64,000 nucleotides of DNA from an uncultured Methanosarcinales archaeon (GTDB taxonomy: Archaea > Nanobdellota > Nanobdellia > Woesearchaeales > JAGLXL01): assembly GCA_964384425.1 (NCBI GenBank), contig CAYLKE010000003.1, positions 26,147 through 90,146 of the forward strand, given 5' to 3'. The first letter of the stretch is position 1. Each line of letters begins with the position of its first letter. The notes beneath the pieces are model-generated. The model saw only the letters and a list, made by a program, of their open reading frames with translations, was not told the origin of the DNA and ran no database searches. Positions 6,192 through 64,000 of the stretch are shown here, piece after piece. The translations under genes and the position numbers were made by a program.

Positions 6192-6293
6192 TGGGTCCGA
6201 GGGGATTTGAACCCCCGACCACCAGCTGTCTTAGATTTGTGTAGAACACAGCCTTATAAGACTGGCGCTCCAACCAGACTGAGCTACGGACCC
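6192..6293 (-). tRNA. Intron-containing tRNA, best read as tRNA-Ile (anticodon TAT) with a 27-nt intron after position 37
   Basis: Acceptor GGGTCCG/CGGACCC, D arm GCTC..GAGC, anticodon stem CCAGT/GCTGG, T arm GGGGG-TTCAAAT-CCCCT. 34 nt lie between the anticodon-stem strands; CTTATA|27 nt|A gives a 7-nt loop with U33 and anticodon TAT. Confidence 0.7.
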
Positions 6294-48660: not shown

Positions 48661-48815
48661 ATTTATAAATTTCTCGCTAGTGGTTGTCCAGTGTGTCCAG
48701 TGGAAAGGTTTCCGATTAGTTGTTAGAAGTGCTTTTAAAAAATATTTTTTTAATTAGTTATATGAAGATAAAAGAGATGTGTGTAAGGGAGAGGCCTAGA
48801 GAGAGGTTGAGGAAA
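48661..48815. repeat. Junction repeat A, copy 3, including an 18-codon radC 5' fragment (48762..48815)
   Basis: atttataaatttctcgctagtggttgtccagtgtgtccagtggaaaggtttccgattagttgttagaagtg..., then atgaagataaaagagatgtgtgtaagggagaggcctagagagaggttgaggaaa (MKIKEMCVRERPRERLRK). Homology to radC stops there. Confidence 0.85.
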
Positions 48816-48853
48816 TTTATCATTTTGTCTGAGCCAACAAAATGCCTTATTAT

Positions 48854-51618: not shown

Positions 51619-51719
51619 CTTTATAAATTCCTCGCTAGTGGTTGTCCAGTGTGTCCAGTGGAAAGATTTCCGGATGATTGTTAGAAGTGTTTTTAAAAAA
51701 TATTTTTATAATTTTTTTA
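51619..51719. repeat. Junction repeat A, copy 5
   Basis: ctttataaattcctcgctagtggttgtccagtgtgtccagtggaaagatttccggatgattgttagaagtgtttttaaaaaatattttt..., ending at the PIN start codon. Its TATA is centred 26 nt from the ATG of the minus-strand DinD fragment. Confidence 0.85.
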
Positions 51720-53094: not shown

Positions 53095-53205
53095 GAGGTT
53101 TGAGAATAAAAGAATAGTTGTTTTGAATCTAAAATAGGTGGGGTGTTGTTGAGAGGGTTGTTGAGAGGGGATGGACGAGTTAAATTTTTCTTTTATTTAT
53201 TTTAA
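53086..53205 (+). pseudogene. Decayed radC 3' end plus its downstream T-rich tail
   Basis: gtttgagaggtttgagaataaaagaatag ... ggggatggacgagttaaatttttcttttatttatttt parallels radC 46424..46526 (gttggagaggttgttggaataaaagtactag ... tgggatggatgagttatgttttttcttttattcatttt). Contains stops. Confidence 0.6.
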
Positions 53206-55705: not shown

Positions 55706-55871
55706 GAATGGAATAAGAAGGTTTTGTTTAAAAATATTGTGAAAACATAAAGCACAGTATTTAAATACTTTTTATACAATAAAAATTATACTCCTATTAG
55801 TGTAAGTTTAATTGGTGTTAATCTCAATAATTTTTTGGGCTACGAACTGTTTAAGGGGGAGAGAAAACTAA

Positions 55872-56432
55872 TTATCTTAAATCTATGATAGTACTTCCAT
55901 TAACATATTTAACTCTTTCAATAGATGTTAAATTGTTATTAGCGACAATAGTTTGATTCTTTTCATTGGTAATTTCCTTTATTCCATCTTTTTTATGTAA
56001 AATAATTGGAGATGATAATCTTGAAAAAAAATTTATCCAATCAAAATCATAAGATATTTCAATATTACAATTGTCAATAGGGGCATTTAGTGACTTAATG
56101 TTTAATAAAATATCTTCATCCATACTAAACCTGTTACATTCAAAGGTATTTATTCCTCTTTTTAAAGAACAATTCGAACTAGATTCTTCTATTTTTAAAT
56201 CATATAATCCCAAATTACATGTATCTTCAATTTTAACACTTAAACTATTTATTGTTTTAAAACCTTTATGATGTATAAAGAAAGTTATATCTAATCCCTT
56301 ATTTAAATCGTTTGTTTTATAAAATCCAATAGCATTAAGATCAAAGGCAGAGTTGACAAAAACATATGTTACTGATAACGTTATGATTGCAATAAAAATT
56401 GCTCCTAAAATTGTTGCAAAGACTTTTTTCAT
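55872..56432 (-). CDS. Membrane-anchored hypothetical protein
   Basis: N-terminal TM (VFATILGAIFIAIITLSVTYVF). Confidence 0.4.
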   Translation of the reverse strand: MKKVFATILGAIFIAIITLSVTYVFVNSAFDLNAIGFYKTNDLNKGLDITFFIHHKGFKTINSLSVKIEDTCNLGLYDLKIEESSSNCSLKRGINTFECNRFSMDEDILLNIKSLNAPIDNCNIEISYDFDWINFFSRLSSPIILHKKDGIKEITNEKNQTIVANNNLTSIERVKYVNGSTIIDLR

Positions 56433-56484: not shown

Positions 56485-56754
56485 TTAATTGAATATTTTT
56501 CTAAAATTCTTTTTAATTTTATTTATAATTCTTTTGCCTGCCATCAAAAGAGTTAATATCTCTAGAATGATAAATACAAAAGCAAGAATTAAAAAAAATA
56601 TTGCCCAATTAGTCATATTTTTTGTTGCATTCCAAAACGCTACAAGAATCATAGCTCCAATAATATATTGGCCAGGAACACCATACATTGCAAGCAAGAT
56701 TTCTACAATGTCTTTTTTTATTTGTTTATTCATATTGATATAAATTATTATCAT
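56485..56754 (-). CDS. Small multi-TM hypothetical protein
   Basis: Two to three hydrophobic segments in 89 aa. Confidence 0.35.
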   Translation of the reverse strand: MIIIYINMNKQIKKDIVEILLAMYGVPGQYIIGAMILVAFWNATKNMTNWAIFFLILAFVFIILEILTLLMAGKRIINKIKKNFRKIFN

Positions 56755-56771
56755 AAATATAAATTTATCTT

Positions 56772-57383
56772 TTAATTTTTATAACTAATTAATTTTAATG
56801 AAATATCATTTGGGTTAATGGTATTTTTTCTTTCAATATGAAACTTAATTTTATATGGGGCAAAATTATCTCCACTAAAAATTAAAATAATGTCATATTC
56901 TCCTGGTTCAATAATAGATTTAATTCCAATACTAACATCATGGTATTTTTCTAAATGGATATCTGAATCAACATTTAATGCTAAAGCAAGATCCAAAAAT
57001 TCGGATTCCCCACGTGCAATATTCAGTCTTTCACCACTTGCTTGATTTATTATTGCTTCTGGACGACCGGCCCACCTAAGAGGAAATCCTTGATATTCGC
57101 CATATTTTTTTCCATTTTTTAGGATAATTTGGATTTGACATCGGCAATTAATTGCGGATGCTCTACCATCATTTTTTACCATAAATCTTAAATATGTTCC
57201 TTTAAAATTAGGATTGTTATTAATAATTGTATTTTCTTTTCTATATGGACTTAATTCAGAATATTTAAATTTTAATGCAGGTTTTATGAACAAAGGTAAA
57301 ATAAAGTCTTTTAATAATGTGAATAAAATTGCAATTATTGATAAGACAATTGGGATCCATATCACATATGTTGATTCAGGCAT
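56772..57383 (-). CDS. Membrane-anchored hypothetical protein
   Basis: N-terminal TM (YVIWIPIVLSIIAILFTLL) followed by a beta-rich domain. Confidence 0.4.
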   Translation of the reverse strand: MPESTYVIWIPIVLSIIAILFTLLKDFILPLFIKPALKFKYSELSPYRKENTIINNNPNFKGTYLRFMVKNDGRASAINCRCQIQIILKNGKKYGEYQGFPLRWAGRPEAIINQASGERLNIARGESEFLDLALALNVDSDIHLEKYHDVSIGIKSIIEPGEYDIILIFSGDNFAPYKIKFHIERKNTINPNDISLKLISYKN

Positions 57384-57418
57384 ATGTTCATTTTTAATTT
57401 CAAATATATAAGTATTTC

Positions 57419-57556
57419 TCGCCCCCAGTATCTTGTTCTAGAAGACTCACTTTGTTCGCACGATTGGACGCCCAAAAAATTACTTCTCACTATCGTTCGA
57501 CACTACGTGGAGATTAACAGGCCCGATGTTAATCTTAATCGAGAAAGAGGGCTAAG
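57419..57556. repeat. GC-rich structured intergenic element E1
   Basis: Core acttctcactatcgttcgac (57482..57501), hairpin gattaaca-ggcccga-tgttaatc (57512..57534), arm tcgagaaagagggc (57539..57552). Markedly GC-richer than its surroundings. Confidence 0.7.
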
Positions 57557-57569
57557 AAAATAAGTATAA

Positions 57570-58343
57570 TTAGACAACAAATGATCTCAAAAATGAACCT
57601 AAATCTTTCTTTTTAATATTCTGGTCCAAAATAGATTGACTAATAACAATTCCATATTTATTAAATAATGCCTGAAGCTTGTTAATAAAATCTCCCATTA
57701 AACAAATTTTATTAAATACTGAATCTACATTAATCCGCTTTTTTTTATAAAATATTTTTTTATTGTTGAAAGTATAATTCTCATGAGCAACACTATTTCG
57801 CAAATCCCTATTAAGAAATTTCAATAAATAATTATAAAAAAACAGATTATGTTTTTTAAATAATAATTCTACATGTTCTGCAGTCCTAATTTGCTCAATA
57901 ACTTGCTGATTATTGTTCGAAATTACATATCGTTTTCCAGATTTAATTTTTTTTGCTATTGGCTTTAAAAAATTAATTAAACAATCGAAATGACTTGCAT
58001 AAAAATGAAGAATTGTATAAATAAACGTTCCTCTTTGAATTTGGTTATTATTTACAAAATCTTTCAGTATTATCAAGTCCATAGCATAATTTTTAAGATT
58101 ATTAGTTCGTAATTGTAATTTATTCATGTCCTTAAAAAAATCTTTTACAGAATAATCAATATTTGAATCATTTATAGCATCATGATATAATAAATCGAGA
58201 TTAAATCGAGAGCTTTGTATTTTCAAATTATGAATCTTCCTAATTGAATTCGCTTTTTTTCTTGCATCTATGGATAGAGAATAATATTTTTTAAATTGTA
58301 CCAAATCCTTTTGTACATCTTGATGAAATTTGCTTACTTTCAT
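57570..58343 (-). CDS. HEPN/Abi-like protein (RNxxAH motif)
   Basis: LNRDLRNSVAHENY fits the Rx4H HEPN/Abi_2-type motif in a helical 257-aa protein. Confidence 0.45.
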   Translation of the reverse strand: MKVSKFHQDVQKDLVQFKKYYSLSIDARKKANSIRKIHNLKIQSSRFNLDLLYHDAINDSNIDYSVKDFFKDMNKLQLRTNNLKNYAMDLIILKDFVNNNQIQRGTFIYTILHFYASHFDCLINFLKPIAKKIKSGKRYVISNNNQQVIEQIRTAEHVELLFKKHNLFFYNYLLKFLNRDLRNSVAHENYTFNNKKIFYKKKRINVDSVFNKICLMGDFINKLQALFNKYGIVISQSILDQNIKKKDLGSFLRSFVV

Positions 58344-58419
58344 ATCATTATGAATATTATAAGTTATTTATATTTCTTTTGAATAATTATACTCATCTAT
58401 CTTATTCTTAATGTATCAC

Positions 58420-58570
58420 ATTCGCTCTTTTGACGAAACGCCCTCTTTCTCGACTTCTCCGTTTCACTCCGACTTTTGCTAAAGCAAAAGAAGATTAACA
58501 TGCCTGTAGTTAATTGCAATTCTAAAATTGCCTATTCTACTACGAGAAACTAACGTTTAGGGAGAGGAGA
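58420..58570. repeat. GC-rich structured intergenic element E2
   Basis: Arm gccctctttctcga (58440..58453, inverted relative to E1). Core acttctccgtttcactccgac. Three consecutive perfect hairpins: cttttgc-taaa-gcaaaag, attaac-N9-gttaat, gcaatt-ctaa-aattgc. Confidence 0.7.
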
Positions 58571-58598
58571 GAAAAAATATATAACAAAAAATATCATG

Positions 58599-60944
58599 TT
58601 ATTCGACTAAATCTAATCCTTTTCTTTTATGATCTTTTTTATTAGGTATATATTCTTCAACACTTAAAATCTTATTGAATTCAGAGATAATATTTGATTT
58701 TGTAATATAATTATCATTTTGTAAAATATTTTCAAATATAATGCTAAAATTAGAACTTCTTAATATTTTATCTCGAGATTTCTTGTCAGCAAAAATATTT
58801 CCCAAAGTTATTAATTCTTCAATATTAATACAACAAAACTTAACTTCCTTTAATCTTTTATAAAATGGGTTTAATTTCTTTTTTCTTTTTATATGAATAA
58901 ATTTATTTTTTTCAATTATTTCATCTATCTTTTGTTGTACCTTATTGAAATCATCCTTATGTGTACTTGAGGTTACAAAAAGATAGTATTTAAGATTACC
59001 CTTCTTATATCTTTTTTCTTTTTTCAATGATTCTAACACATATTGAACATCTTTAATAGCACCTTTCTTTGATTTTTTTGCGTAACTACTTAATTTAGTA
59101 TCATCATATCTTTTTGCATCCCAAAAAATATATTTTATTTCTTCTAAATTTTTTATTCCAATTATCCCATCGGGTAAATTAGGACCTCCCCATAAATCAC
59201 TTATGGGAAAAATATAATTAAATATATTTGCTGTTAATCTTTCATATTGATTACCTTTTTTCTTTTTATCTAATAAATTCTTATTTTTAGTAATCTTTCT
59301 TAATTCAGTAAGAGATTTGTCAAATGAGTTTTCTAATTGTTCAGCTAAAGATTGCGTTAAAACTTTTTCTTTGAAGAAATCATTAAATTTAGTTTCTTTA
59401 AATATTCTAAATATGAATTTTGATGCATCTTCCTGATATAAGAATTCTGGGAATTTTTTAATCTCTCCAGAAAAGTTTATACAATACAAGGGTCTGGGAT
59501 ATAATGAAAAATCTTTCAATAAATCTTTTGTTAAACCTTTCTTATTAAAAAATAAATTAATATCCTTTTCACCATCTAATGAAATCTTATGTAATTCATA
59601 TTTTTTGTTATAAAATAAAGATCTTATTTTTGAATATTTTATTTTTTCTTTAAGTAATTTCTTTTTTAATTGATTTATAATTTCATTAAAATCAAAGTTT
59701 ATATGTTGTCCTTGTACAAAAATTTTAATCTTATTATTTTTTTTACAAAATGGACACTTTTTTGTTCTGAATGCAGAATTGTGCCAACATTTCATCGAAT
59801 TGTAACATTTATATAAATTTACTTCTTTAACATCTTTTACTAGTTTTAAATTATTTAATTTTTCCATAATTTTTTCAAATATTGTTAGTTTACTTTCTTT
59901 TACAGATAAAAAACCTCGAATTATTATTTGTTGAAATAAATTTTCATGAGACATTTTTTCAGTATCAATAATAGGACTATTAATTTTAATTCCTAATTCA
60001 ACAAGATTTTTTTCTAAATCGGAATCTTTATTTTTACTTTTATTCTCTATAAGTAAACCAGAATTTGTTTGTGTAAATTTTAAATAATTAGTATGTTTTT
60101 TGTTAAATCTTATTCTCATATAATCAATATAAGACAAATCAAACTTTTCAGAATCTATAAAAATTGCATCTTTTTTATTTAATAAATTAGATACGTATTG
60201 TTTAATGTTGCCTTGATTAGATTTTATGATTATTTTTTCTCCAGATGAAATATCTGTTATATTAAAACCAATTTCTTCAATTTCAATATCTTTATAATGG
60301 GGATTTATTATCGATTGACTTAAATTTTTCCAAGACCCAATTTCAGGAATTTTTGGTTGAACTAAGGGAGCTTTAATCTCATTTTGTAACAAAGTTTCAA
60401 ATAAAAGACCTAATTTAGGAGGCATATTTTTAATTTTTAACGATTTATTAATTTTATCAAAATAGATTCCAATAATTTCCCTTATATCCTTATTGTTTGG
60501 TCTAATTCTCTTTTTATTTCCTAACCTAGCATTTTCTTGAAGGAGATATAAAATAAAAATAGAATAATCTTTTTCATAAAGAATACGATCTTCATCTAAA
60601 GAAAATCTTTCGTTTTCTCTTATTATTTTAGTCAATCTAACACAAGTAAGTCTAATTGATTTCATCAAATCTTCATCTGCGATTTTGAAATTATCTGGCA
60701 ATTTATATCTTACAACACCTATGTCTTCACTAAAACTAGTTTTAAAATGAGATAATAATATGCTCTTCTGAGAAGGATATTTTTCTACAGTTTCTATGGA
60801 ATCAATAAATTCTTTGTTTTCTTCATAGTATTTTTCTATAGTCTTTATAGTTGGTCGACTATTATAATGAATTTTTTTAAGACTTGTTAACAAACTTTTT
60901 TCTTCAGAAGAGTATTTGGATTTAAACAATATGACCATCTCCAT
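58599..60944 (-). CDS. Large protein with Zn-ribbon and C-terminal PD-(D/E)xK nuclease-like motif (candidate restriction/defence nuclease)
   Basis: CYNSMKCWHNSAFRTKKCPFCKK (Cys4 ribbon) mid-protein. C-terminal LPDGIIGIKNLEEIKYIFWDAKRY gives PD...x17...DxK. Confidence 0.45.
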   Translation of the reverse strand: MEMVILFKSKYSSEEKSLLTSLKKIHYNSRPTIKTIEKYYEENKEFIDSIETVEKYPSQKSILLSHFKTSFSEDIGVVRYKLPDNFKIADEDLMKSIRLTCVRLTKIIRENERFSLDEDRILYEKDYSIFILYLLQENARLGNKKRIRPNNKDIREIIGIYFDKINKSLKIKNMPPKLGLLFETLLQNEIKAPLVQPKIPEIGSWKNLSQSIINPHYKDIEIEEIGFNITDISSGEKIIIKSNQGNIKQYVSNLLNKKDAIFIDSEKFDLSYIDYMRIRFNKKHTNYLKFTQTNSGLLIENKSKNKDSDLEKNLVELGIKINSPIIDTEKMSHENLFQQIIIRGFLSVKESKLTIFEKIMEKLNNLKLVKDVKEVNLYKCYNSMKCWHNSAFRTKKCPFCKKNNKIKIFVQGQHINFDFNEIINQLKKKLLKEKIKYSKIRSLFYNKKYELHKISLDGEKDINLFFNKKGLTKDLLKDFSLYPRPLYCINFSGEIKKFPEFLYQEDASKFIFRIFKETKFNDFFKEKVLTQSLAEQLENSFDKSLTELRKITKNKNLLDKKKKGNQYERLTANIFNYIFPISDLWGGPNLPDGIIGIKNLEEIKYIFWDAKRYDDTKLSSYAKKSKKGAIKDVQYVLESLKKEKRYKKGNLKYYLFVTSSTHKDDFNKVQQKIDEIIEKNKFIHIKRKKKLNPFYKRLKEVKFCCINIEELITLGNIFADKKSRDKILRSSNFSIIFENILQNDNYITKSNIISEFNKILSVEEYIPNKKDHKRKGLDLVE

Positions 60945-60973
60945 TTCTTGATATTATTAAGCATATACTCATT

Positions 60974-61300
60974 TTATAATTGTCTAAATTTAAAATCAAT
61001 CTGATTTTTATATTTCTCTCTTAAATCGCTTGACGACGGTTTCATTAAACAATCATTACATGCATATTTCCAATTTTTTCCATCTTCTAATAACTCATAA
61101 CATATTGTTTCCTTACCACACATCCCACACATTTCTTTTTTTAACCTAACCAAATTATTATATCCTTTATCTAATAACCAATTCATAATTATATTCTTTG
61201 CTCTTATTGAATCTTTATTTCCTAAATATTGGGGTTTCTTAAATAATTCATATTCTCCATCATCCAATGTTAATACAATTCTTTGTGACATCAAAATCAC
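60974..61300 (-). CDS. Small RHH-like + Zn-ribbon protein
   Basis: N-terminal IVLTLDDGEYELF is a beta-strand start like RHH. CGMCGK...CNDC is a Cys4 ribbon. Lies directly upstream of the 781-aa gene. Confidence 0.4.
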   Translation of the reverse strand: MILMSQRIVLTLDDGEYELFKKPQYLGNKDSIRAKNIIMNWLLDKGYNNLVRLKKEMCGMCGKETICYELLEDGKNWKYACNDCLMKPSSSDLREKYKNQIDFKFRQL

Positions 61301-61520
61301 CTCCTGTATACTTTAATATATTAGAATATCTTTTAGTATATAAATATTGTTATTTAATTAAATCAAAAGATTTTTATAATAAGTAGAATTACTGAAATTA
61401 AACGATGGTTTTGAAATCTAAGAACATTAAAAATATTATTTTTGACAATAACTCTCGAGTATTATTTTTACCTTAGAATATATGATTAAATGAATGAGTT
61501 GTAATATTGGGAGCGATAAA

Positions 61521-61577
61521 ATGACTTATCCAGAATTGATATTAATTTTAATTCTTCTTGTATTATTGAAGAATTAA
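61521..61577 (+). CDS. 18-aa hydrophobic micro-ORF (MTYPELILILILLVLLKN)
   Basis: Hand-found. gggag lies 7 nt upstream, and the perfect hairpin aaggga-ttta-tccctt plus a T run lies immediately downstream. Confidence 0.25.
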   Translation: MTYPELILILILLVLLKN

Positions 61578-61626
61578 ATAAGGGATTTATCCCTTTTTAA
61601 AAAGATTAAATTTACTGAATAATAAA

Positions 61627-62589
61627 ATGGCAGAAAAAGTAAAAAATCATTTTATTCCTAATTTTATTATAAACAATTTTTCATTTGTTGAAAAAAATGA
61701 GGGAAAAGATGTTTGGAGAATTTCTTTTTTGATGAAACCCTGCAATTTAATTCAAAAGAATATTCTTTCTAAAACCCAATGTCAAAAAAGATATTTTTAT
61801 TCTAAAAAACATATTTCCGTATTATTAAAGGAATTTAAACACATAAAATTAAATCCTATTTTTAACAATATTAATAACACTCTTGAAGAAAATTTAGATA
61901 TTTATCTTGAAAATAAATTTGCTAGGATTTACTCTAATTTTAAAATGACTAATAATGTTATTGAATTAAATCTTGAAAACGAGTTCATTAAAGAATATTT
62001 TGTTATTCAGTATCTTAGGGCAGAGAAGTTTAAAGATTTTTTAAAAAATAACCCTTTCCACCCTAACATAAATTATGAGCAGACATTAAAAGAAAACATA
62101 CTAAAAACAACAAAAATGCCGTCAAGTAAAGTAAAAAAATTACTTAAAACTAACAAATACAAAAAATTATTATCTAAACATGCAAAAAATTGTAAAGTTA
62201 ATGTCAATAAGTATGCTGATGCTGAGGATAGACATACTCTAGAAATACTAAGCGCAAAAAATAGAGAAAGCATATTTATGGATTACGAATTAAAAAAGAA
62301 AAACATGACTATCTTATTAAATAAAACAGATACCCCTTTTGTGTTATCTGATTGGGGAATATTGATTATGAAATCTAAAAATTCAGAGAACAAAAATGAT
62401 TATGAATTCTTTTTATCTATATCTCCCACTACAAGTATTTTATTCTCAAAAAATATTAATTTAGTTGAAAAAATTTCAGAAGATTATGTAAATTCTATTA
62501 ATCAGATGTTATTTGATGAATCAAAAAAAATAATTTATTCATCAGATATTACATATTTAAAGTCATTTAAAAAGTCTCGTTCTTTTTAA
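61627..62589 (+). CDS. DUF4238-like protein
   Basis: The N-terminal NHFIPNFIINNFSF matches the H.VP..YL..F start recalled for DUF4238. Unverified. Confidence 0.35.
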   Translation: MAEKVKNHFIPNFIINNFSFVEKNEGKDVWRISFLMKPCNLIQKNILSKTQCQKRYFYSKKHISVLLKEFKHIKLNPIFNNINNTLEENLDIYLENKFARIYSNFKMTNNVIELNLENEFIKEYFVIQYLRAEKFKDFLKNNPFHPNINYEQTLKENILKTTKMPSSKVKKLLKTNKYKKLLSKHAKNCKVNVNKYADAEDRHTLEILSAKNRESIFMDYELKKKNMTILLNKTDTPFVLSDWGILIMKSKNSENKNDYEFFLSISPTTSILFSKNINLVEKISEDYVNSINQMLFDESKKIIYSSDITYLKSFKKSRSF

Positions 62590-62599
62590 AAAAGAACCA

Positions 62600-62745
62600 A
62601 AACATCTCCCTTCCAAGTATTTAGTTGCTACACAAGATATAATAAGAAGATTCACGGCAGGTTTTAGAACTTCTTCGCTTCACTCGACTTTTTTAGCGAA
62701 AAGGCAATTAACAAGATTTTAACGACTTCGTTTCACTACATTCAA
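62600..62745. repeat. GC-rich structured intergenic element E3
   Basis: Left part ctcccttccaagtatttagttgcta resembles the E1 left part ctcgcccccagtatcttgttcta. Core acttcttcgcttcactcgac (62669..62688), hairpin ctttt-ttagcg-aaaag, second core copy acttcgtttcact (62725..62737). Confidence 0.65.
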
Positions 62746-62895
62746 ATCTTTTTAATAGATTTAAGATAAAAGAGAATAAGAAATTGAAAAAATATCTGGA
62801 ATATGCTACAAAAAATAGGAACTTTTATAAATTATTTCTTGATACTTAGTACTGATCGTATGAATCTAGAAGATCTGTAAAAAAGAGGTTAAATA

Positions 62896-64000
62896 ATGAA
62901 GAATAATTTTACTGTTGCTGATTTTTTTTGTGGTGCTGGAGGGTTCTCTGAGGGCTTTAGACTAGCTGGATTTGATGTAGTATTTGCTTTAGATAATTGG
63001 GACATTGCAAGACACACTCACAAACTTAATCATCCAAAATCTAAACATCCTGGTCTTGATTGTTTTCATGAAACGAGAGGCGATATACTTTCCATTCCAC
63101 CTGAAAGAGTTGACGAGATTGTTGATGATACTGATGTCATTGTAGGCTCTCCACCTTGTGTTTCTTTCTCATCTTCAAATAGAGCAGGAAAAGCTGATAA
63201 ATCGTTAGGTATAAAGTTGATTGAAAAATATTTTCAGATAGTGGCTATTAAAAAACACAAGAAAAATTCAGTATTAAAGTATTGGATTATGGAAAATGTT
63301 CCTAACGCAAGAAAATTTATAAAAAAATCCTATACATTCAAAGAAATAGGACTTAACAACAAAATTCTAAAGAAGTTGAAGATAAGAAAAAAAGAGAACG
63401 ATGTTGCTCTTGAAATAAATTCCTCTTCAAAGATATATAATTCTGTTTACTTTGGTGTACCACAAAAAAGAAAAAGATTTTTTTGTGGAGATTTTCCAAT
63501 ACCAAAGAAAAAAACAAAATCAAGAGAAGAGACATTCACTTTAGGAATGGTTTTAGACTCATTAAGACCAAATGGAAATCTAAAAAAAGATCCACTCTAC
63601 AATTTTACAATTAATGATAATGAACTTACTGATCATTATTATGATACTACCATTCCCGAATTAGCTTGGAAGCAAGCCAAACTTAAAAAACAACAAGCCA
63701 GATATTATGGCAGAATGTCTTTTCCAGAGAATGAAAAAGCTCCTAGTAGGACCATTATGGCGACTAAATCTAATATGACTCGAGAAGCGATGATTTTTCA
63801 TAATGGAAAACCAAATGTTTATCGAGCACCAACTATAAGAGAAATTGCTTCGATAATGTCTTTTCCAATAACCTATCTTTTTCAAGGTAATAATGAATTA
63901 GATAAATATAGGCTTGTTGGGAATGCTGTCTGTCCAAAAATGGCGTTCGCTTTTGCAGAAGCCATTTTACTTGATCGAAATAAAAAACCTAAACTATCCA
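62896..64000 (+). CDS. dcm: DNA (cytosine-5)-methyltransferase, partial (runs off window end)
   Basis: Own translation, not in the track. Motif I FCGAGG, IV GSPPC, VI ENV, VIII QKRKR, IX TIREIASIMSFP, X GNAV. No stop codon up to position 64000; aagaggt lies upstream of the ATG. Confidence 0.9.
   Translation, partial: MKNNFTVADFFCGAGGFSEGFRLAGFDVVFALDNWDIARHTHKLNHPKSKHPGLDCFHETRGDILSIPPERVDEIVDDTDVIVGSPPCVSFSSSNRAGKADKSLGIKLIEKYFQIVAIKKHKKNSVLKYWIMENVPNARKFIKKSYTFKEIGLNNKILKKLKIRKKENDVALEINSSSKIYNSVYFGVPQKRKRFFCGDFPIPKKKTKSREETFTLGMVLDSLRPNGNLKKDPLYNFTINDNELTDHYYDTTIPELAWKQAKLKKQQARYYGRMSFPENEKAPSRTIMATKSNMTREAMIFHNGKPNVYRAPTIREIASIMSFPITYLFQGNNELDKYRLVGNAVCPKMAFAFAEAILLDRNKKPKLS

Follow-up and report, generated by a model that had tools for sequence, protein, structure and literature searches.

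What are the GC-rich blocks that separate genes in an otherwise AT-rich stretch of archaeal DNA? The question is raised by 64,000 nucleotides (nt) of contig CAYLKE010000003.1 (C3; this stretch is hereafter the window), which belongs to a Woesearchaeales (DPANN) genome of 1.05 Mb in 23 contigs that is 90% complete. Three intergenic blocks in the window, E1, E2 and E3, have a GC content of 0.34-0.41 compared to 0.15-0.27 in the surrounding window DNA, in agreement with a previous sequence-only reading that had called them conspicuously GC-rich and had proposed either RNA genes or structured recombination elements. These blocks are junctions, each comprised of the right end of one cassette, a short spacer and the left end of the next. 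That reading overlooked one more boundary, E0 (55816-55866), which makes four. E0-E3 probably represent the boundaries of an integron-like row of three cassettes in this archaeon, and we favour the view that they serve an integron-like cassette system as its recombination sites, with Xer-like recombinases as the possible enzymes.

Matching ends across the cargo

The right part of E1 (TGTTAATCTTAATCGAGAAAGAGGGC) is the reverse complement of the left part of E2 (GCCCTCTTTCTCGA..AAGATTAACA), and this complementarity is broken solely by the E2 core and hairpin. The right part of E2 is likewise the reverse complement of the left arm of E3, and the left arm of E1 pairs with the three segments of E0 (TGTTAATCTC, AATTTTTTGGGC and GGGGGAGAGAAA), the sequence of which is unique within the window and is the top-ranked partner of E1. 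When the two ends of each cassette were joined in silico, they folded to -28.9 kcal/mol for cassette 1 (E0 plus the E1 left arm; z -4.7), to -26.5 kcal/mol for cassette 2 with a perfect 14-bp outer stem (z -6.9) and to -23.3 kcal/mol for cassette 3 (z -3.4). E1 alone folds no better than its shuffles (z -0.9). Since the hairpin is split in the chromosome, each block between genes is a hybrid whose two halves do not match.

The matching extends beyond the window. We compared the 110 nt after the R' box (TGTTAA) of one site with the 150 nt before the R'' box (TTAACA) of the next site, and among 20 sites of the genome the true neighbour ranked first for 10 of the 16 adjacent pairs (binomial P~6e-10; Mann-Whitney p~8e-7). 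The outer positions of the box arms also follow the cargo: positions 8-10 match across the genes and not across the spacer, as seen for E1-right TGTTAATCTT with E2-left AAGATTAACA and for E0 TGTTAATCTC, which pairs with E1 GAGATTAACA across the cassette 1 genes. The cassette boundary therefore lies between R'' and R'.

The recurring unit thus delimited has the order TIR1 (terminal inverted repeat 1, 10 nt, containing the box), TIR2 (12-20 nt, unit-specific), cargo, TIR2', module and TIR1'. Complementarity of the unit ends reaches 25-60 nt beyond the box, and a conserved module of 30-40 nt is found at the right end only of each unit. That the arms are cassette-specific and yet kept complementary argues that pairing, and not only protein recognition, is under selection. 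Once the GC-rich blocks are understood as hybrids of two cassette ends, a practical rule follows for such genomes, which is to delimit cassettes by pairing ends across genes.

Map of the cassette row

55816-55866, plus strand: E0, left end of cassette 1 and start of the row
55816-55825, plus strand: E0 R'/TIR1, TGTTAATCTC
55829-55840, plus strand: E0 TIR2, AATTTTTTGGGC
55855-55866, plus strand: E0 reversed left block, GGGGGAGAGAAA
55816-57519: cassette 1, between E0 and E1
55872-56432, 56485-56754 and 56772-57383, all minus strand: cassette 1 cargo open reading frames (ORFs), no family match
57418-57552, plus strand: E1, junction of cassette 1 and cassette 2
57418-57434, plus strand: E1 left block, cassette 1 right end
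57470-57481, plus strand: E1 TIR2', GCCCAAAAAATT, cassette 1 right end
57482-57501, plus strand: E1 divergent core
57501-57509, plus strand: E1 3-bp hairpin
57509-57519, plus strand: E1 R''/TIR1', GGAGATTAACA
57520-57526, plus strand: E1 spacer, GGCCCGA
57527-57536, plus strand: E1 R'/TIR1, TGTTAATCTT, cassette 2 left end
57539-57552, plus strand: E1 TIR2, TCGAGAAAGAGGGC, cassette 2 left end
57527-58500: cassette 2, with a single-ORF cargo
57570-58343, minus strand: cassette 2 cargo, 257-aa ORF
58440-58574, plus strand: E2, junction of cassette 2 and cassette 3
58440-58453, plus strand: E2 TIR2', GCCCTCTTTCTCGA, cassette 2 right end
58453-58473, plus strand: E2 core
58473-58490, plus strand: E2 7-bp hairpin
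58491-58500, plus strand: E2 R'', AAGATTAACA
58501-58508, plus strand: E2 spacer, TGCCTGTA
58509-58517, plus strand: E2 R'/TIR1, GTTAATTGC, cassette 3 left end
58518-58532, plus strand: E2 TIR2, AATTCTAAAATTGCC, cassette 3 left end
58557-58574, plus strand: E2 reversed left block, cassette 3 left end
58509-62713: cassette 3, with a three-ORF cargo
58599-60944, minus strand: cassette 3 cargo, 781 aa
60974-61300, minus strand: cassette 3 cargo, 108 aa
61627-62589, plus strand: cassette 3 cargo, DUF4238
62605-62723, plus strand: E3, cassette 3 right end and end of the row
62605-62620, plus strand: E3 left block
62656-62669, plus strand: E3 TIR2', GGCAGGTTTTAGAA
62669-62688, plus strand: E3 core
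62688-62703, plus strand: E3 hairpin
62704-62713, plus strand: E3 R'', GCAATTAACA
62714-62723, plus strand: E3 degenerate R', AGATTTTAAC
62724-62762, plus strand: remnant of a further right end, decayed, with core-like GACTTCGTTTCACTAC and then the hairpin AAATCT..AGATTT

No R'' box lies to the left of E0. Apart from DUF4238, the cargo of the window cassettes has no match in Pfam, PADLOC, NCBIfam or PDB.

Alignment of E1-E3 bears out the module order that had been proposed for them, namely left block, core, hairpin and ATTAAC, while several of its details need qualification. The core ACTTCTYCGYTTCACTC is exact in E2 and E3 and recurs elsewhere in the genome, on C1, C4 and C12 (a 21-mer version had 0 matches across 100 shuffles), but the E1 core is far more divergent than a common core would imply. 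The palindromic box assigned to all three blocks, ATTAAC-N-GTTAAT, holds for two of them: GATTAAC-N-GTTAAT is found solely in E1 and E2 (chance expectation 0.11 matches), and E3 carries ATTAAC followed by the degenerate AGATTTTAAC in place of GTTAAT. A second E3 core, placed at about 62725, is present only as the decayed remnant starting at 62724, in which we find no TTAAC box. The hairpin that follows the core does keep its position but is thermodynamically weak, and its E1 version (cac-tac-gtg) has only 3 bp. The three consecutive hairpins noted in E2 are real, with local folds of z -5.2. E3 has copies that are 92% identical on C1 and 88% identical on C4.

The family in this genome and in its relatives

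Copies of the element occur genome-wide. A profile search identified 7, and hand curation combined with GC-rich intergenic islands gave at least 20 related sites. Twenty sites lie in four rows, on C3 (E0-E3), on C12, at C4:80983-97447 and at C1:20171-23096, and a single orientation is kept within each row (C4 10/10, C1 4/4, C3 4/4 and C12 2/2). Their cargo includes AbiE, MNT/HEPN, a UvrA-like ATPase, DUF4238 and orphan ORFs. A single integrated element between C4a and C4b, with one att repeat as its boundary, was dropped as a candidate because many sites lie between them. The C4 row also contains, adjoining the AbiE and MNT/HEPN pairs, a 347-aa ORF (C4:83801-84844, equivalent to L016:5790-6833) that combines a TOTE archaeo-eukaryotic primase (AEP) with a partial tyrosine-recombinase domain. 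The word GGGATTGATTTTTAGTGCAACGATGCCGAGGG flanks this row on both sides (C4:79207-79388 and C4:97443-97492), its second copy adjoining a reverse-transcriptase gene at C4:96051-97364.

Relatives of the sites are found in DPANN metagenome-assembled genomes (MAGs) labelled Pacearchaeota, Nanoarchaeota and Woesearchaeota and in low-GC metagenome contigs; one 8-kb locus of another DPANN MAG (L024) harbors four to five co-oriented copies 0.6-2 kb apart. In these relatives the 20-nt core is followed by a conserved segment, ..CCCACGCTGCGCTCTCAC..TTCGGGG.., and by (T)TAACA, after which come either a 9-13-nt spacer or a 46-90-nt hairpin and then CGATGTTA(T/A). The stem sequence of the 46-90-nt hairpin varies by site but stays paired, its inner words CCTTGCAGG and CCCAAAT are conserved, and in the long sites a constant CGA bulge stands beside the inner stem. 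In 15 of 19 cases a co-oriented ORF ends ahead of the module, which sits 6-130 nt past the stop codon, and the ORFs that precede it are mutually unrelated. The core 20-mer is present in 3 of 300 other genomes of the order (about 1%), and an exact core word in just 2 of the 300. A BLAST search with the A-type element in 40 relatives returned fragments only. At L009:1501-1640 in a relative (genome G026), an intron-bearing tRNA gene is followed immediately at its 3' end by the core-like AACTCTTTCGCTTCGCTCGAC.

Less selective searches were set aside. The output of a generic repeat finder was swamped by AT-rich chance matches, and a genome scan for simple AAC...GTT palindromes was unspecific, as the reversed control (75) exceeded the real count (33). 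A CRISPR-like reading of GTTTTAGAAC was rejected because there is no tandem array.

Recurrence of a cassette in other contexts

Homologues with 63% identity to the 257-aa cargo of cassette 2 are present on two contigs from other Woesearchaeota, L104 and L107. Their neighbours there are unrelated: L104 has a tRNA, a sugar kinase and an NTP-transferase, and L107 a SurA-like protein. Both homologues keep the end GCCCTCTTTCTCGATTRARWTTAACA after the stop codon, and their similarity to the window ends exactly at TTAACA. Each also has an upstream end that is led by TGTTAA or TTAAGG and includes a small hairpin, with a partner resembling TCGARRAAGAGG. Since the same end is kept in other contexts, the 257-aa gene travels with the two hairpin halves as one unit.

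Xer-like recombinases in carrier genomes

The genome encodes three Xer-like tyrosine recombinases of 269-308 aa with 39-46% mutual identity, at C1:27696-28505, C9:~253-1044 and C11:22305-23117, as well as the AEP primase fused to a partial recombinase. The Xer-like genes on C1 and C9 lie 40-66 nt downstream of a family site. In another carrier genome a row of three sites starts beside a frameshifted Xer-like gene (L037), and the sole Xer gene of a further one (G043) has a TTTAACACCTATTTA..CGATTTTAT site upstream. A Xer/dif-type core site consists of two inverted arms of ~11 bp around a central region of 6-8 bp, to which a Xer recombinase binds. E1 and E2 have 8-11-bp inverted arms around 7-8-nt spacers, whereas other family sites have 9-12-nt or 46-90-nt centres. 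The integron-integrase model TIGR02249 gave no match above cut-off in five carrier genomes (G000 and G041-G044), and every recombinase in these genomes matched model positions 1-182 and 237-315 while skipping the IntI-specific segment (~183-236). Several TTTAGGG/CCCTAAA repeats (C1:27403-27520), which could be arm-type binding sites, closely precede the family site that lies ahead of the C1 Xer-like gene.

Comparison with integrons and Xer-dependent elements

In canonical attC sites nearly all of the hairpin is located at the 3' end of the cassette, and the next cassette contributes only TTRRRY. The family shares several features with integrons: its rows are co-oriented and carry short, unrelated and often defence or toxin-antitoxin cargo, its boxes resemble RYYYAAC/GTTRRRY, the opening bases of a cassette are complementary to the box at the opposite end of that cassette, and its long sites have an inner stem and an asymmetric bulge. 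Across 22 sites the boxes fit RYYYAAC and GTTRRRY at a mean of 6.3/7 and 6.2/7 positions, with 5.4/7 box pairs formed; the boxes are GATTAAC/GTTAATC in E1 and GATTAAC/GTTAATT in E2. The arrangement in rows, with co-oriented sites separated by unrelated ORFs, is that of a CALIN (cluster of attC sites lacking integron integrases).

The sites depart from integrons in how the hairpin is built and placed. End complementarity is 25-60 nt here versus 6-7 nt in integrons, and most of the hairpin is split by the cargo, its halves lying at opposite cargo ends and their complementarity running past the box. Box-to-box spans are 23-27 nt in 11 of the 22 sites and 60-104 nt, with an L stem and a CGA bulge, in the other 11; E1 and E2, at 23 nt and without an L stem, fall short of an attC site, which is about 57-141 nt long and has an inner stem with an unpaired central spacer or extrahelical bases. 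There is a conserved bulged module of 30-40 nt, the cassettes have their own promoters and stand in either orientation, and none of the five carrier genomes encodes an IntI with the IntI-specific domain that a complete integron has.

Systems that rely on Xer recombinases offer other parallels. In integrative mobile elements exploiting Xer (IMEX) such as CTX-phi, a folded single strand forms a XerCD site and integrates at dif. The likeness to the family consists in a Xer-family enzyme without a dedicated integrase domain (its role here being presumed), in a site made by a folded hairpin and in the dispensability of spacer identity; the core is also dif-like, its box GATGTTAAAT resembling the XerD arm TTATGTTAAAT. 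The difference is that CTX-phi is one phage at the chromosomal dif site, whereas the cassettes here are small, numerous and arranged in rows at several loci. The pdif modules of Acinetobacter plasmids and cer/psi are double-stranded sites with fixed 6-8-bp spacers. In the pdif modules, as would be the case here, genes are bounded by Xer-type sites, and the family has about 100 nt of conserved sequence to one side of the core, comparable to the accessory arms of cer and psi. Cassette-specific complementarity across the cargo is not known in either.

Alternative explanations

That the blocks are ordinary attC sites in a CALIN, with IntI supplied in trans or lost, would explain the R''/R' consensus, the R' remainder that belongs to the next cassette as in integrons, the co-oriented rows and the 60-104-nt sites with inner stem and bulge. 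Archaeal integrons and CALINs have also been reported, including from Pacearchaeales and Woesearchaeales (Ghaly et al. 2022; PMC9668308), so that integrase-less attC-like rows are already in print for this phylum and the window is a further well-resolved example, not a first sighting. The supplementary tables of that paper contain none of the signature words of the family, and we found no published description of cassette-specific split hairpins or of a Xer-run cassette system in DPANN archaea. No protein of the five carrier genomes reaches the integron-integrase cut-off, half of the sites are shorter than any functional attC, and the complementarity across the cargo and the bulged module are not known as features of the canonical attC; we therefore regard this explanation as unlikely. 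Improbable, in our view, is that the units are foldback or terminal-inverted-repeat transposons, or are derived from miniature inverted-repeat transposable elements, and inserted into TTAACA/TGTTAA-like targets so that the blocks are abutting ends. Each unit does have 25-60-nt terminal inverted repeats that start TGTTAA...TTAACA, one unit was found in several contexts and the family is patchy across the order. Yet there is no transposase in or near the units, we see no consistent target-site duplication in their flanks and each unit has different cargo. Ends of the IS200/IS605 type or a TnpB omega-RNA are not indicated either: the genome has no match to Y1 transposase (PF01797) and none above cut-off to TnpB (PF07282; one 17-bit sub-threshold match on another contig). 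The units are always head-to-tail in one orientation, and site-specific insertion into an existing site therefore fits better than transposition.

The first of the two earlier proposals, here taken as small structured RNA genes or conserved 3'-UTR (untranslated region) or terminator elements, is the one to which we assign the least probability. It would accommodate GC-rich islands within an AT-rich genome, a conserved 20-nt single-stranded word followed by a position-kept hairpin of varying sequence, and a module located shortly past stop codons in relatives. Rfam 15, however, yielded nothing relevant in the window, with no match in 57000-63000 (E<=10) or in the eight loci that hold full-length relatives (E<=1), and the region contains no tRNA or tmRNA fragment. 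The fold of a single block is weak or absent, as in E1, the position-conserved hairpin is weak, and strong folding needs both cassette ends joined, the pairing partner lying beyond 1-4 kb of genes. Gene orientation relative to the module is not fixed, and the rarity of the core word in the order argues against a housekeeping RNA. The second proposal, structured recombination elements, fits the co-oriented boundaries, the attC/dif-like boxes, the cassette-specific hairpin halves and the recurring cassette.

Several results weigh against the integron-like cassette system that we favour. In 6 of the 16 adjacent pairs the ends do not clearly match. On its own the conserved module folds weakly and inconsistently (-3 to -6 kcal/mol), RNAalifold gave no consensus structure for it, and G-T versus A-C mismatches numbered 13 versus 25, in noisy alignments, and did not single out a folding strand. 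No recombinase gene adjoins the window row, and a candidate docking word shared near Xer genes, TAACACCTAYTTA, was discarded after it proved no more frequent than background and, in 13 other genomes, not adjacent to Xer genes; the assignment to Xer enzymes is therefore one that we infer. Neither a circle junction nor an empty site was found in assembled contigs of three public DNA runs, in which the joints were short-sided artefacts. The spacers of partner sites differ (GGCCCGA versus TGCCTGTA), so that classical double-strand exchange would be inefficient, and the window sites are minimal, E1 and E2 lacking an inner stem and E3 a proper R'. On account of the non-identical spacers, the 23-nt sites and the degenerate E3 R', the window row may be a fossil, old and partly fixed.

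A model for cassette exchange

Read along the plus strand, the left end of each cassette is a TGTTAA.. box, the counterpart of the attC R', with 12-60 nt of cassette-specific sequence; the middle holds one or more genes with their own promoter; and the right end carries the complement of the specific sequence, the 30-40-nt module (a ACTTCTTCGCTTCGCTCGAC-like core and a small hairpin) and a ..TTAACA box, the counterpart of the attC R''. In a circular or single-stranded cassette the two ends would form one long bulged hairpin with TTAACA-spacer-TGTTAA at its tip. We infer the enzyme and the strand for insertion and excision at this TTAACA/TGTTAA core: a tyrosine recombinase, presumably one of the Xer-like paralogues, would bind the two arms, and strands would be exchanged within or next to the 7-10-nt spacer. 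If two junctions recombined, the product would be a circle whose site is a perfect extended palindrome, and by analogy with attC and with the attP of CTX-phi its single strand or cruciform would fold into the long hairpin. The one-sided module might determine strand choice, like the extrahelical bases of attC, or bind accessory factors, as in cer and psi.

How DPANN archaea, host-dependent and with tiny genomes, acquire and reshuffle their accessory and defence genes is poorly understood. A wider and more doubtful proposal is that the family represents a gene-capture system parallel to the integron, in which a Xer-family recombinase without the IntI domain inserts and excises promoter-bearing cassettes, many with defence or toxin-antitoxin genes, by acting on long, split, cassette-specific hairpins with a bulged module. 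If this were true, folded-DNA cassette capture would not be confined to IntI, and either its origin would lie before that of IntI or Xer recombinases would have given rise to it more than once; the integron principle would extend to Xer-type enzymes, and the mosaic defence islands of these genomes would be accounted for. Structure-dependent recombination sites of this kind might, in principle, be made into molecular tools.

Other features of the window

A G/T-rich island at 53124-53190, between two ORFs, contains a direct repeat of GGTGTTGTTGAGAGGG (two copies) and is unrelated to the cassette sites. The repeated, promoter-proximal word CCACTGGACACACTGGACAA adjoins a TTTATA box upstream of several genes, at 48665-48836 and 51623-51689 in the window and also on C1, C6, C8, C12 and C13. 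Rfam identified a 102-nt tRNA at 6192-6293 that ARAGORN did not call; it is probably an intron-bearing archaeal tRNA, located between tRNA-Ser and tRNA-Asn.

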